Source of the DNA: a virus | Taxonomy: Duplodnaviria; Caudoviricetes | Virus record (IMG/VR): IMGVR_UViG_3300048599_000089 | Span: 1-33,309 of that record | Direction: 5' to 3' (one strand) | Length of the DNA stretch: 33,309 nucleotides | Shown: one piece after another, positions 7,865-32,506 of the stretch | Layout of the letters: each line of letters starts with the position of its first letter | Numbering within the stretch: the stretch's first letter is position 1 | Program-made: the position numbers and the translations under genes | The notes under the pieces: model-generated | What the model was told of the DNA's origin: nothing | Databases searched by the model: none | The model's input: the letters and a program-made list of their open reading frames with translations, nothing else

Positions 7865-8332
7865 ATGGCTGCTATTTTAGTCACAACAATTAAAAGATTT
7901 ATTGGTACAGCTGCTGAAATGGCAGCTTTAAGTGTCGTTGGGGTGCCTACAGGAAGTACATTTTTTCAAACTGATACAGGATTTATGTACACTCTCAGTA
8001 GTGCAGGTACTTGGGCAATAGAAAAAATAATAGGTGATGTAAATCTCCAAGTTAACGATGTCGATGTCAGCGCGGCTAATCCTGTTCCTACCCAACTAAC
8101 GGGTAGTAATGTCAAGAAAGCTTTTACGATTACACCTAATGATTCAGTAGATTTGCCTGTAAACGCTCTATCTCTAACGTGTGTTACAGACGGTATTGCT
8201 TATGTTGATTTTATTGACGGAGGAACAAACATACCGATACAACTAAGTGCCGGTTACTGGAACCCAGTTAATGTAAAACGTGTTAGAGCAACCAATACAA
8301 CTGCGACAGGTATTATGGGGCAAGAATCATGA
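7865..8332 (+). CDS. Putative head-spike base protein (RcGTA Rcc01079-like C-terminal domain)
   Basis: AFTITPNDSVDL...LSAG...PVNVKRVRATNTTATGI matches my recollection of the spike-base family; ATGA overlap with the next gene. Confidence 0.7.
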   Translation: MAAILVTTIKRFIGTAAEMAALSVVGVPTGSTFFQTDTGFMYTLSSAGTWAIEKIIGDVNLQVNDVDVSAANPVPTQLTGSNVKKAFTITPNDSVDLPVNALSLTCVTDGIAYVDFIDGGTNIPIQLSAGYWNPVNVKRVRATNTTATGIMGQES

Positions 8333-9669
8333 TCGGTGTAGGAGTAGGCATCCCTTTTGGTAATCAAAAAGCTAAGATATATGGCGTATCTTGGGATAAA
8401 AGTTCATCTCCTGTATTGACACGTACGGATTCTGCATTTGGGATGATTGCAAATGCCGGTATTGATACCGAACTAGTTAGAAATGACTTCGACAGAGCAG
8501 CAATTTTTAGCGAGATGCACGAAGTAACAGACGCTTTGGGTAATGTTTTTATCCGTATACCAAAATTTTATATCCGCAAAACAGACGGGGTAAATTTAAG
8601 GACATGGCAAATCTCAAAAAGAAAATATCCTGGTTTTTACCTTCCTTGGTGTTTTTGGGATTTTACCAGCAGCAGAGAATTGCCGCATATAGATGTTGGT
8701 AAATATAAAGCAACAAAAGATGGTAGTAGCAGGTTAGAGTCAAAGCCAAACCTATATCCACTAATCAACGACAACATTGTAAATTTCCGAACATATGCAC
8801 AGAACAATAATATAGGCGGGCTAAGTGGATATCAGCAGCTTGATATCCACGCCGTTGATGTTTTACAAACGCTTTTCCGAGTCGAATTTGCAACACTAGG
8901 CAGTCAGTCAGTTATGCAGGGATTTACGGCTGGGCAATATACTGCGACACACCTTGCAACAGTATCGGAAAATAGCACTAATCGGATTATTGTCTCAAAT
9001 GCTATTGCCGATCTATATCGAGTTGGTCAAACAATTTCCATTGGTACGTCTCAGGGTGGGAATCAGATATTTTACGGTAGGACAATCACTGATATAAGTA
9101 TTTACGATGTTAGCAATAAAGCTATTAGTTTTGACGGTTCTCCTGTTAATATCGCTGCAGGCAACATGCTTTACAATACGGGATGGAAAAACGGCTTTAG
9201 CAGTGGCATAGCAGCAAGCAGCGGAACTATTATTGCCGATGACGGTAAATATCCCTGTGTATATCGGGGAATTGAGTCTCCATTTGGTGACATTTGGCAG
9301 TTTGTTGATGGGGTAAATATCACCGATTATCAAGCTTGGGTTTGTAAAAATGCAGCTCAATACGCCAGTAACGTGTTTGCTTCTCCGTATGAGGTTTTAA
9401 ATTATATCAATCATAACGCAAATGGCTATGTGACTCAGATGGGCTTTGATACCAGTTACCAGTTTGCGGAATTTTCTGCGGCAATAGGCGGTGGAAGTAC
9501 AACATATTATTCTGACTACTATTATCAGGCTACCGGACAGAGAGTTGCCCGCTTCGGGGGTGCCTGGAATTACGGGTCTGATGCGGGCCTGTCGTGCTGG
9601 TATCTGAATTTCGCGTCTTCGGCTGCGGCTGTGAGCTTCGGCGGGCGGCTTCTTAAAAAACCTCTTTAA
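8329..9669 (+). CDS. DGR target protein with C-terminal CLec-type variable domain; putative head-spike fibre
   Basis: C-terminus ...RFGGAWNYGSDAGLSCW...FGGRL is encoded by the VR; YRGIESPFGDIWQFVDG motif; N-terminus MIGVGVGIP. Confidence 0.9.
   Translation: MIGVGVGIPFGNQKAKIYGVSWDKSSSPVLTRTDSAFGMIANAGIDTELVRNDFDRAAIFSEMHEVTDALGNVFIRIPKFYIRKTDGVNLRTWQISKRKYPGFYLPWCFWDFTSSRELPHIDVGKYKATKDGSSRLESKPNLYPLINDNIVNFRTYAQNNNIGGLSGYQQLDIHAVDVLQTLFRVEFATLGSQSVMQGFTAGQYTATHLATVSENSTNRIIVSNAIADLYRVGQTISIGTSQGGNQIFYGRTITDISIYDVSNKAISFDGSPVNIAAGNMLYNTGWKNGFSSGIAASSGTIIADDGKYPCVYRGIESPFGDIWQFVDGVNITDYQAWVCKNAAQYASNVFASPYEVLNYINHNANGYVTQMGFDTSYQFAEFSAAIGGGSTTYYSDYYYQATGQRVARFGGAWNYGSDAGLSCWYLNFASSAAAVSFGGRLLKKPL
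9545..9655 (+). repeat. DGR variable repeat (VR) including IMH
   Basis: 111-bp ungapped match to 9745-9855 with 24 mismatches, 23 of them opposite TR adenines. Confidence 0.97.
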
Positions 9670-9744: not shown

Positions 9745-9855
9745 TTGCCCAATTCGGAGGTAACTGGAATAACAGGTCTAATGCAGGCCTGTCGTACTGG
9801 AATCTGAATAACACGTCTTCGAATGCGAATGTGAACATCGGCAGGCAGACTCTTA
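9745..9855 (+). ncRNA. DGR template repeat (TR) including IMH*
   Basis: AAC/AAT-rich copy of the VR (conceptual AQFGGNWNNRSNAGLSYWNLNNTSSNANVNIG), intergenic, upstream of the RT. Confidence 0.97.
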
Positions 9856-9972
9856 TTAGCAAAAATTTTTGTATTGCACCCTATAATCCTCACCGCTTGG
9901 TGGAAATTAGGCCGTAAAGAGCATGGTTTAGTAGAGTATCGAAACACCATGAGGCTAATAAGAAGGTAGATT

Positions 9973-11064
9973 ATGAAGCGAATTGGATATGTCTTTGAAA
10001 AAGTTTACGATTTAGACAATATCAAATTAGCAATAATGAAATCTTCGCTCGGCAAAAGAACTCAAAAAAGAGTTAAGCGTGTAATAGATAATATTGATGT
10101 GTATGCCGTAAAAATTAAGCACCTATTAATAACTAAGCAATATAGTCCATCTCCGTATAACGTAAAAATTATACAAGATGGTTCAAGCGGAAAAATTAGA
10201 ACTATCTTCAAGCCGTGTTATTATCCTGACCAAATTATACACTGGGTTTTGATGTTACAATTACAGGTTGTAATTATGCACGGCATGTATAAGTATAATT
10301 GTGGTAGCGTACCAGGAAGAGGAACAAGCTTTGGGCAAAAAATATTAAGGAAATGGCTTGATTCGGACTATAAAAACACAAAATACTGCTTAAAAATGGA
10401 TGTAGCAAAGTTTTATCCATCCGTGAATAACGAGTTATTAAAGCGGATGTTTCGTAGAAAAATAAAAGATAAGGACTGCCTATGGTTGATTGACACTATT
10501 ATAAACAGCAGTTCTGGTTTACCTATCGGCAATTATACCAGTCAGTGGTTTTCTAACTTCTTCTTACTGGGATTAGACCACTATATTAAAGAAAAATTGG
10601 GCGTAAAATATTATGTAAGATATGTTGACGATCTAGTTTTGCTGGGCCCGAATAAAAAGAAACTGCACAAAGCAAGGAAATTAGTATCCGAATACCTTAA
10701 CGGCATTGGACTAAATATAAAAGACGACTGGCAGGTATTCAGAGTAAGTAACAGGGCAATAGACTTTTTGGGATTCCGATTCTTTAGGAATAAAACTATT
10801 CTAAGAAAGAGAAATGCCCTTAGGATTAGGAGAAGAATCAATAAAATCACAAAGAAAGGTTATATAAATTATAAAGATGCCTGTGCGGTTGTATCTTACT
10901 GGGGCTGGATTAAAAGAAGTAACAGTTATAATTTTTACCATAAATATGTAAAACCAGCCGTAACTGTTGGTTTTGCTAAGAAAGTGGTGAGCGATATTGC
11001 AAAAATACGGAATCGTACAGGACGGAAAATTGACATTAAGCGAAAATTACCAAGAAGGATATAA
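9973..11064 (+). CDS. DGR reverse transcriptase
   Basis: YVRYVDD catalytic motif, LPIGNYTSQ (DGR-type SQ motif), KMDVAKFYPS, IDFLGF; 363 aa with no maturase or endonuclease domain. Confidence 0.96.
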   Translation: MKRIGYVFEKVYDLDNIKLAIMKSSLGKRTQKRVKRVIDNIDVYAVKIKHLLITKQYSPSPYNVKIIQDGSSGKIRTIFKPCYYPDQIIHWVLMLQLQVVIMHGMYKYNCGSVPGRGTSFGQKILRKWLDSDYKNTKYCLKMDVAKFYPSVNNELLKRMFRRKIKDKDCLWLIDTIINSSSGLPIGNYTSQWFSNFFLLGLDHYIKEKLGVKYYVRYVDDLVLLGPNKKKLHKARKLVSEYLNGIGLNIKDDWQVFRVSNRAIDFLGFRFFRNKTILRKRNALRIRRRINKITKKGYINYKDACAVVSYWGWIKRSNSYNFYHKYVKPAVTVGFAKKVVSDIAKIRNRTGRKIDIKRKLPRRI

Positions 11065-30779: not shown

Positions 30780-30848
30780 CGTAGCACCTCCTATTAAATT
30801 TTAGTTTGCCCTCTAAGCTACCCCCAGCAGGGGCAGGAACAAGGCAAG

Positions 30849-31124: not shown

Positions 31125-31231
31125 TTTATCCTCCTTCCGCCAGGCTACCAGCCTGGCACTACAGCACTCGCTGCATAGTAGTTGTTTTCGCAGGTACCTG
31201 CGATATGGTTACTTACTCCAGTATCATGGTC

Positions 31232-31601: not shown

Positions 31602-31662
31602 AACCCTTGAACTGTGGAGGCAAAGCCTCCTGCCGGGATTCTCGACACTCCATTAGCGGGTT
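31602..31662 (-). ncRNA. Twister-sister-like structured RNA (candidate self-cleaving ribozyme)
   Basis: AACCC-GCUAA-UG...[UGUCG-7nt-CGGCA][GGAGGC-UUU-GCCUCC]-ACA-GUUCAA-GGGUU. Confidence 0.45.
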
Positions 31663-31978
31663 ACCTTCCTGGAATTGTGTAATATTTAGCTACTATTGCC
31701 TGAGCCAAGTAAGATTCTTTTTTAGCGTCCGGTACTTCAATAGCCTTTAACTTGCACTCTATATCGCCAATCAATTTACCCATATTAATTCTAAAGTCTT
31801 TCATTCTGTAAACTATAATGGAATTGCCGTCTTTAACGGCTACCTGGTTTCCATTATAGTTCACAACTGTGCCGTCACACATAGCTTCCCAACCGGCACT
31901 AAACATCTCCTTAGCTTCTTTAATTTTTACATCTGCGTTAGCTTCATCTTTAAGAGCTTTAATTATTTTATCTATCAT
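31661..31978 (-). CDS. Small hypothetical protein
   Basis: AAAGGGGA RBS, 105 aa. Confidence 0.75.
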   Translation of the reverse strand: MIDKIIKALKDEANADVKIKEAKEMFSAGWEAMCDGTVVNYNGNQVAVKDGNSIIVYRMKDFRINMGKLIGDIECKLKAIEVPDAKKESYLAQAIVAKYYTIPGR

Positions 31979-32014
31979 TTAGTTTGTCCCCTTTCAAAGT
32001 TATTTTCTATATAT

Positions 32015-32163: not shown

Positions 32164-32213
32164 CCTGCTACGGCCTTGCTGGCCGTTTCGCTGTCTACAG
32201 CTCGTCAGGCAGG
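32164..32213 (-). ncRNA. Type I hammerhead ribozyme
   Basis: CCUGC-CUGACGA-GCUG(UAGA)CAGC-GAAA-CGGCC(AGCAA)GGCCG-UA-GCAGG: complete catalytic core with three perfect stems. Confidence 0.93.
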
Positions 32214-32483
32214 CTTTATTGTTTTTAGCGGACTGTCTTTGCATACATAGCGGTTAGGGCACTCCTTGCACCCGCCACTATTTTTGTGCATTTCGCAAAA
32301 TGTTACTACATCATGGTTTACACCTAAGCTTTCTGCAAGATCCCTTATTGCTCTGAGAGAATAACTGGATATTTCGTGATCTTTCCAGTTACCGGTCTTT
32401 TTCCCTGCTTCGTAATAGTGCTGAACTATTTTTCTATGCTCTATTACGGCATCTTGGATGATTTCAATTTCCCGTTTAGTCAT
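32205..32483 (-). CDS. Small protein with Cys-rich C-terminus
   Basis: C..H....CKECP....C; AAAGGGGA RBS. Confidence 0.75.
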   Translation of the reverse strand: MTKREIEIIQDAVIEHRKIVQHYYEAGKKTGNWKDHEISSYSLRAIRDLAESLGVNHDVVTFCEMHKNSGGCKECPNRYVCKDSPLKTIKPA

Positions 32484-32506
32484 TTAGTTTGTCCCCTTTT
32501 CTGTTT

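Follow-up and report, generated by a model that had tools for sequence, protein, structure and literature searches.

The stretch of DNA analysed here, referred to as the window, is the whole 33,309-base record of a virus. The plus strand carries head, tail and lysis genes. The right end carries, on the minus strand, a NikA-like ORF and five small ORFs without family matches, together with genes for a 384-aa protein, an SNF2 helicase, a PAPS-reductase/DUF3440 protein, a GNAT acetyltransferase and a ParB-like protein. A diversity-generating retroelement is present on the plus strand (9545-9655, 9745-9855, 9891-9965 and 9973-11064). It comprises a 111-nt repeat pair, in which 23 of 24 mismatches lie at template adenines, an Rfam RT-18 RNA and a reverse transcriptase, and its target is a 446-aa tail protein (8329-9669). 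The last approximately 20 bases of the window (plus strand) read MGGMM-stop, which we take to resemble a chaperonin C-terminus, and 19 identical bases are found in the locus L219 (2400-2418); these 19 bases are probably an attachment site. The accessory region has no match among annotated phages. A related phage, L228, has the genes for the 384-aa protein and the SNF2 helicase in the same order as in the window and flanking genes as in the window, and its record, which is about 48% complete, gives no hammerhead pattern match. The closest relatives of the hammerhead element lie in Bacillota and Peptococcaceae records, pointing to a Bacillota host. The features of the right end are as follows.

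32864-32820, minus strand: terminator behind the NikA-like ORF
32804-32775, minus strand: promoter-like site with the predicted transcript start (consensus match only)
32677-32507, minus strand: 56-aa ORF, the first gene of the predicted transcript
32483-32205, minus strand: 92-aa ORF (ORF92), ending in KTIKPA on the ribozyme UGA; a mosaic protein in which residues about 60-87 form a 28-aa Cys-rich module
32219-32214, minus strand: A-rich 5' flank common to the closest ribozymes, including an out-of-frame UAA at -11, which is the stop codon of an ORF in the related locus L163
32213-32164, minus strand: type I hammerhead ribozyme (sequence, fold and covariation), with the core UGA at 32207-32205 and the predicted cut at 32169/32168
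32168-32063, minus strand: predicted noncoding 3' cleavage product of about 105 nt
32092-32063, minus strand: intrinsic-terminator-like hairpin (stem 32092-32070) and U tract
32043-32015, minus strand: promoter-like site for the next transcript, from ORF105 onward (consensus match only)
31662-31602, minus strand: candidate ribozyme of the twister-sister type, lying between ORF105 and ORF116 and predicted to cut at 31609/31608
31231-31125, minus strand: third spacer, separating ORF116 from ORF91 and containing three hairpins
30779-26030, minus strand: block of the 384-aa protein, SNF2 helicase, PAPS-reductase/DUF3440, GNAT and ParB-like genes, downstream of both ribozymes

The minus-strand segment 32213-32164 is confirmed, at the level of sequence, as a real and complete type I hammerhead motif. 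Stem I is formed by pairing of 32213-32209 with 32168-32164 (5 bp), stem II by 32201-32198 with 32193-32190, closed by the loop UAGA, and stem III by 32186-32181 with 32175-32170. The core consists of CUGACGA (32208-32202) and GAAA (32189-32186). The cleavage triplet GUA (32171-32169) places the predicted cut 36 bases past the UGA stop, at the position that the preliminary description of this DNA had read from the sequence. The core bases and core-flanking pairs needed for a hammerhead, as set out in the available text of Perreault et al. 2011 (PMC3088659), are all found: C3, U4, G5, A6, N7, G8, A9, G12, A13, A14, A15.1, U16.1 and H17 are present, the core-adjacent pairs are intact, stems II and III are loop-closed, and stem I is open. 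The hammerhead fold is both the minimum-energy and the centroid structure of the 50-nt piece (-20.7 kcal/mol; z -2.96, with 1 of 200 shuffles equally good). When searched with a type I descriptor, the window yields this site alone, and 150 Markov resamples of it, searched on both strands, yield no match. In five related copies (the window, L211, L506, L516 and L163), pairing holds in 45 of 45 cells of stems I and II, and three pairs of these stems are changed on both sides over this small set of five sequences. The sequence of stem III differs among the related copies with its pairing kept, and loop II (UAGA or UAAA) and the A-rich flanks are conserved in the five. The earlier reading of a canonical hammerhead with a complete core and stems I-III is thus borne out by its bases, its fold and its covarying relatives.

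Rfam covariance models gave no ribozyme match on 2.6 kb around the element, either at their cut-offs or at E ≤ 10. On a 101-nt stretch, weak matches were obtained to Hammerhead_3 (RF00008; 15.5 bits, E 0.45, cut-off 48.5) and to RAGATH-1-hammerhead (RF03152; 14.5 bits, E 2.4, cut-off 56.3). The core is as in Hammerhead_3, and the core, the type I topology and the A-rich 5' flank are as in RAGATH-1-hammerhead, but by score the window hammerhead belongs to neither of these curated subfamilies.

As had also been described, the UGA at 32207-32205 is the stop codon of the ORF at 32483-32205, and stem I covers its last two codons. The 92-aa product has no Pfam or PHROG match, and no relatives of it were found in viral contigs. 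ORF92 nevertheless looks coding, judging from its codon score (+0.107 versus -0.60 and -0.50 in the other two frames), from a 20-nt leader identical to that of ORF105, and from a Cys-rich module that has database relatives. The identical leaders lie at 31975-31994 (ORF105) and 32480-32499 (ORF92), and a weaker copy lies at 30800-30814, upstream of the 384-aa gene; such repeated translation-start leaders are possibly recombination points for the shuffling of small genes. The Cys-rich module (about 32223-32306 of the window, minus strand) was traced in 17 loci (L211-L227), where it stands alone or is the N-terminal, internal or C-terminal part of otherwise unrelated small proteins. The type I descriptor matches one of these loci (L211), and a variant core in L214 was seen by eye; the other 15 of the 17 give no type I match, and so the module is not tied to the ribozyme. 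Arrays of type II hammerheads lie near the Cys-module gene in L224 and L225.

A cut at 32169/32168 had been proposed to release a 3' RNA of about 100 nt ending at a terminator. The terminator-like hairpin (stem 32092-32070) is present, so the predicted 3' piece is about 105 nt long; its structure is unremarkable (z -0.44). The accessory transcript had also been suggested to process itself by means of a second ribozyme-like element. Such an element does exist, as a twister-sister-type candidate at 31662-31602, but it is separated from the hammerhead by the terminator (32092-32070) and a promoter-like site (32043-32015), and so the two ribozymes are probably carried on two consecutive transcripts.

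The TAA of ORF105 (31663-31661) overlaps the start of the P1 stem of this candidate. Its catalytic loop has strands of 5 and 6 nt with a C-A cleavage dinucleotide and is closed by P1 and P2, and the strands match the twister-sister loop described in the available text of PMC11620745. Its P4 hairpin carries the conserved 9-nt loop within a 3- or 4-way junction. P1, the 5-nt and 6-nt loop strands, the 9-nt L4 and the three-way junction agree with the Rfam consensus (RF02681), whereas the consensus G-C pair of the catalytic loop is A-U in the candidate and P2 has only two pairs. Eight of the nine L4 bases are identical to those of L557, which belongs to the class of L211's genome and has a 50.5-bit twister-sister match and two similar elements with near-identical L4, and the L4 also fits the pattern derived from four Rfam cut-off matches. 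A descriptor built from these four matches, written after the candidate had been seen, finds the candidate, two of the four and the second copy in L557, with no match in 1.16 Mb of reversed sequence or in 400 Markov windows. The candidate has no match to RF02681 at E ≤ 10, and it does not stand out in a sequence-only alignment to four true twister-sisters. Eleven pattern matches for it in viral contigs are unrelated, and nothing beyond short, chance-level matches came from DNA and pattern searches of 162 genomes; the sole pattern match in these genomes (L556) does not fit the descriptor. A hatchet-like reading of the loop was dropped, other parts of a hatchet being missing. Two twister-sister ribozymes at the Rfam cut-off are seen in L050 (575-645 and 1100-1171, minus strand). 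The third spacer (31125-31231) has no ribozyme family match and no homologue among the 162 genomes.

A pattern search of the 162 genomes, which are of the class of L211's genome, yielded 30 loci taken from 33 matching genomes, and several relatives of the hammerhead end their upstream gene exactly as in the window. L211 has a window-like 5' half of the ribozyme and an ORF ending IKPA on the core UGA, with an unrelated stretch of about 55 codons between the Cys module and the tail and with a stem III that differs from that of the window. The genes of L506 and L516 both end KPA on the core UGA, the L516 gene being a DUF3873 gene unrelated to the others. The KPA-stop on the core is thus found in the window, L211, L506 and L516 behind three unrelated C-terminal regions. 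The comparison indicates that the ribozyme is conserved as RNA and that the residues KPA are dictated by it. Other relatives have a stop codon of their own. L214 encodes a bare 30-aa Cys module that ends on a TAA nine bases upstream, in frame with the core UGA. The hammerhead of L214 is a U15.1-A16.1 variant, and such variants cleave slowly according to the available text of PMC3088659. In L509 (two copies) and L512-L514, the gene's own stops are at -11, -21, -13 and -12, i.e. 11-21 bases upstream, and one L509 copy has no adjacent ORF. L163 has a 5' half nearly as in the window and ORFs that stop at -11 and -19. Core stop and own stop therefore both occur among related ribozymes.

Gene ends at phage hammerheads were counted in seven pattern scans of viral contigs and in genome and metagenome loci, with at least 450 bases upstream required; full flanks were available for 80 loci in each of three viral-contig scans, among the matches listed. 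The loci were picked by sequence patterns, and genes were called as the longest ORF. Among the matches listed there are 120 distinct type I, 76 type II and 29 type III hammerheads, the type I loci, which fall into 114 clusters, not being phylogenetically independent; reversed sequences gave no match. ORFs of at least 60 codons that reach the core in frames 0, 1 and 2 number 40, 8 and 10 at type I, 8, 3 and 4 at type II, and 1, 1 and 2 at type III hammerheads, among the matches listed. With L211 excluded and a single gene taken for each ribozyme, the type I set comprises 119 copies from viral and genome loci; among the matches listed, 35 of the type I genes end on the core UGA and 50 stop before the ribozyme, while four use another stop before the cut, four pass the cut and 26 copies have no gene. 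The corresponding numbers for types II and III, again among the matches listed, are one on the core UGA, 66 before the ribozyme, three at another stop, six past the cut and 29 without a gene. Core-UGA endings thus make up 35 of 93 type I genes (38%) versus 1 of 76 at types II and III among the matches listed (Fisher p 5e-10), in which the cut lies upstream of the UGA; this control is confounded by depth, since in these two types the UGA lies 40-60 nt inside the ribozyme.

The overall share of 38%, among the matches listed, is close to the one third expected if genes simply ran into the ribozyme at random and one frame in three met the UGA. The right denominator, however, is the genes that enter the ribozyme, and 35 of these 43 type I genes are in the core frame among the matches listed (binomial p 1e-10 versus 1/3). 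The raw frame counts of 40, 8 and 10, among the matches listed, speak against reading-frame chance in the same way. Such chance is already contradicted, unless the longest-ORF rule systematically missed genes in other frames, and we regard it as extremely improbable. Eight of the 40 type I core-frame ORFs have PHROGs matches, compared with none of the nine type II/III core-frame ORFs and none of 17 other-frame ORFs, among the matches listed. A competing ORF that stops earlier exists for all nine type II/III core-frame ORFs versus seven of the 40 at type I, among the matches listed. Sharing of the stop codon is real, recurrent, far from random and specific to the permutation in which the cut follows the stop; transcription, cleavage, its timing and the selective cause of the overlap are what we infer.

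These observations lead to a plausible explanation, to which we assign a probability of roughly 60%, in which dense packing of genes against the ribozyme and a subsequent filter make the invariant UGA a free and harmless stop codon that is tolerated rather than used for translational control. Phage genes would end at the 5' edge of type I ribozymes, where the fixed UGA lies 5-7 bases inside and upstream of the cut. Because of this position, a gene that lost its stop, or was recombined onto the ribozyme in the core frame, would gain a few residues (two to four), its message would keep a stop, and it would still function. Genes in the other frames would reach far into the ribozyme or extend beyond the cut, the latter giving a stop-less message, and would mostly be lost; use of the UGA in types II and III, or passing the cut, would likewise give a stop-less message in these phages. 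Rescue pathways for stop-less messages are established. In the window, the type I hammerhead is predicted to cut the transcript 36 bases past the stop, probably without needing translation and likely during or soon after transcription, and cleavage would leave an intact message and a separate noncoding 3' piece of about 105 bases. According to the available text of PMC3088659, cleavage of clustered prophage hammerheads takes place both in vitro and on expression in E. coli, and natural hammerheads are thought to work co-transcriptionally (PMC1636495, available text). Bacillota are classed in the accessible part of PMC13323073 as having an RNA polymerase that outruns the ribosomes, and so folding of the ribozyme could precede the arrival of any ribosome.

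Among the matches listed, genes lie just as tightly against the 5' edge of type II hammerheads as against that of type I. The excess of core-UGA endings is larger than avoidance of stop-less messages alone would give: readings in the other frames meet a stop before the cut in 73 of 238 cases, yet only four genes use such a stop versus 35 that use the core, among the matches listed, and so either entering deeper must carry a cost or the core stop itself must be selected for. That the overlap arose solely through loss of redundant in-frame stops is unsupported, as upstream in-frame stops are not depleted (16 in frame versus 20 and 13, among the matches listed). That all four closest copies keep the overlap also counts against packing.

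The preliminary description had inferred that a terminating ribosome would block folding and that cleavage may be coupled to translation. In its general form, this alternative holds that ribosomes terminating at the core UGA block folding, or melt misfolded structures and so permit it, that release of the 3' RNA thereby depends on translation of the upstream gene, and that the overlap is selected for this. Several observations are in its favour. The core UGA is far commoner than the other safe stops (35 versus 4, among the matches listed), and the four closest copies all keep the overlap behind three unrelated gene ends. The helix predicted to compete with the ribozyme in the window uses exactly the last codons and the stop, and in L211 and L506 the predicted active fold drops from 0.8 to about 0.01-0.1 when untranslated upstream sequence is included. 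A terminating ribosome must, by its established footprint, cover stem I and the core. A gene stopping 8-13 nt upstream would cover stem I too, and so the overlap would not be needed for interference. The drop in the active fold is equally large with shuffled upstream sequence and in non-overlapping copies, among the matches listed. At related ribozymes the gene has a stop of its own, 9-21 nt upstream, which argues against coupling by design, and a terminating ribosome would block briefly, cleavage being a one-time event. The assignment of Bacillota to the uncoupled class in the available text of PMC13323073 weighs against coupling and gating alike.

Comparison of overlapping with abutting copies gives no sign of such control either. 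Predicted folding measures do not differ between 40 core-stop and 51 abutting copies (p 0.46-0.89), and sequestration by real versus shuffled upstream sequence and the predicted formation of stem I are the same in these two sets, in each case among the matches listed. Overlap shows no link to the N7 base (C in 22 of 37 core-stop versus 27 of 49 abutting copies), to stem lengths (stem I has 4.9 versus 5.2 pairs in overlapping versus abutting copies, p 0.057) or to folding, among the matches listed. A conserved ribosome-gated alternative fold specific to the overlapping copies was not found in these predictions, which contain no tertiary terms. Coupling as first proposed is therefore not supported, and a translation-gated ribozyme appears unlikely. 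Two side observations on the same copies, among the matches listed, are that A is the last base of the cleavage triplet in 11 of 37 core-stop versus 6 of 49 abutting copies, and that own stops peak at -9 (11 of 49).

The competing helix itself bears on whether this particular copy is active. A stretch about 14-20 bases past the cut is able to pair with the stop and the codons just before it, and the predicted active fold of the window copy falls from about 0.8 to 0.01 once 20-40 nt downstream are included, at which lengths L211 and L506 behave differently. Two downstream substitutions may thus have created a 7-bp helix that involves the core and prevails over stem I, leaving the copy inactive or slow. 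The core and stems are perfect, however, the gap is 2.7 kcal/mol in a fold prediction without tertiary contacts, and the predicted active fold recovers to 0.7 when 70 nt downstream and a short upstream context are included. Moreover, 44-50% of natural copies are below 0.1 in the prediction, among the matches listed; a drop predicted in about half of the natural copies makes that in the window weak evidence, and an inactive or slow copy is very unlikely. The competing downstream helix is the one place where, in the model, a ribosome could help rather than block.

A different origin of the arrangement is raised by the sequence that follows the cut in the closest relatives, in which one further feature is found.

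L211 4329-4590, plus strand: hairpin array of about 260 nt, prophage ends

L211, L506, L516 and a decayed copy, L554, share this GC-rich noncoding segment directly after the cut. The segment is 79-84% identical to L211 in the other copies, ends near a terminator-like hairpin, and is predicted to form several hairpins (z -1.40). The L211 segment has no Rfam match at the cut-off. The ribozyme could accordingly serve to generate the 5' terminus of a structured noncoding RNA, in which case the overlap would be incidental and the window would carry a shortened or decaying cassette, since its 3' piece matches only the first approximately 25 nt of the segment. Ribozyme and segment remain joined behind differing upstream genes in the four copies, and 5 of 58 predicted pairs are changed on both sides, both of which fit this possibility. 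Against it, the segment is confined to 3 of the 162 genomes of one class (four copies), with none in a 401-genome sample of the phylum or in 30 other genomes, and it is absent from the annotated phages and plasmids searched. The folding score is only -1.40, the segment could be a DNA element or reflect recent shared descent, and in L554 the segment persists although the ribozyme has decayed. Most type I copies are closely trailed by a gene, one lying at most 80 nt downstream in 75 of 101 copies among the matches listed. The segment may be an undescribed RNA with a ribozyme-made 5' end, which four sequences cannot establish, and we consider it quite unlikely that this accounts for the overlap. 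A bolder combination, in which phage type I hammerheads are selected to carry the stop and terminating ribosomes reset or gate the ribozyme, so that release of the approximately 260-nt RNA is tied to translation of whichever small gene was recombined onto the cassette, is in our judgement similarly doubtful.

Packing with a harmless UGA is thus the reading that we prefer, and if packing alone is the cause, three bases have a triple use without any new mechanism. If gating were true, the element would be a natural ribosome-gated ribozyme. Among the matches listed, a simple rule emerges, in which about four in ten adjacent genes end in the core of a type I hammerhead and almost none in that of types II and III. 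Such sharing implies that type I ribozymes act on translated messages, and relatives with an own stop and with a core stop form matched natural pairs for testing the effect of the ribosome on cleavage. Searches confined to intergenic regions clip ribozymes that share a stop, and Rfam missed both ribozyme candidates in the window.

The terms "stop codon" and "overlap" are absent from the main text of PMC3088659, as is "stop codon" from that of PMC10085705, and the available texts of PMC13725137, PMC6154101 and 10.1101/2025.04.24.650125 have nothing on sharing of a core UGA. Use of the core UGA as a stop codon was not found in print in a search of largely freely accessible papers. In zeta/betaviroid-like circular RNAs, start and stop codons sometimes overlap hammerhead motifs (10.64898/2026.09.16.752053). 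These are circular RNA replicons with type III hammerheads, unlike the window, and the available text does not state that the core UGA is the stop. Hammerheads cluster with other ribozyme classes near phage genes for purposes given as unknown in the available texts of PMC6765202, PMC4604425 and PMC10085705, and the first of these describes the role of many phage self-cleaving ribozymes as still open. The closest known system is the set of hammerheads between prophage genes that are active in vitro and in E. coli (PMC3088659). As far as its available text goes, these resemble the window element in having a canonical core, a location in a region of small genes and a second self-cleaving motif nearby. 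Processing of phage transcripts was proposed for them and their cleavage was observed, whereas cleavage in the window is predicted. The window cut would release a noncoding piece that runs to the terminator and not a downstream gene as in that system, and the partner of the window hammerhead is of the twister-sister type, unlike the partners in the clusters described there.
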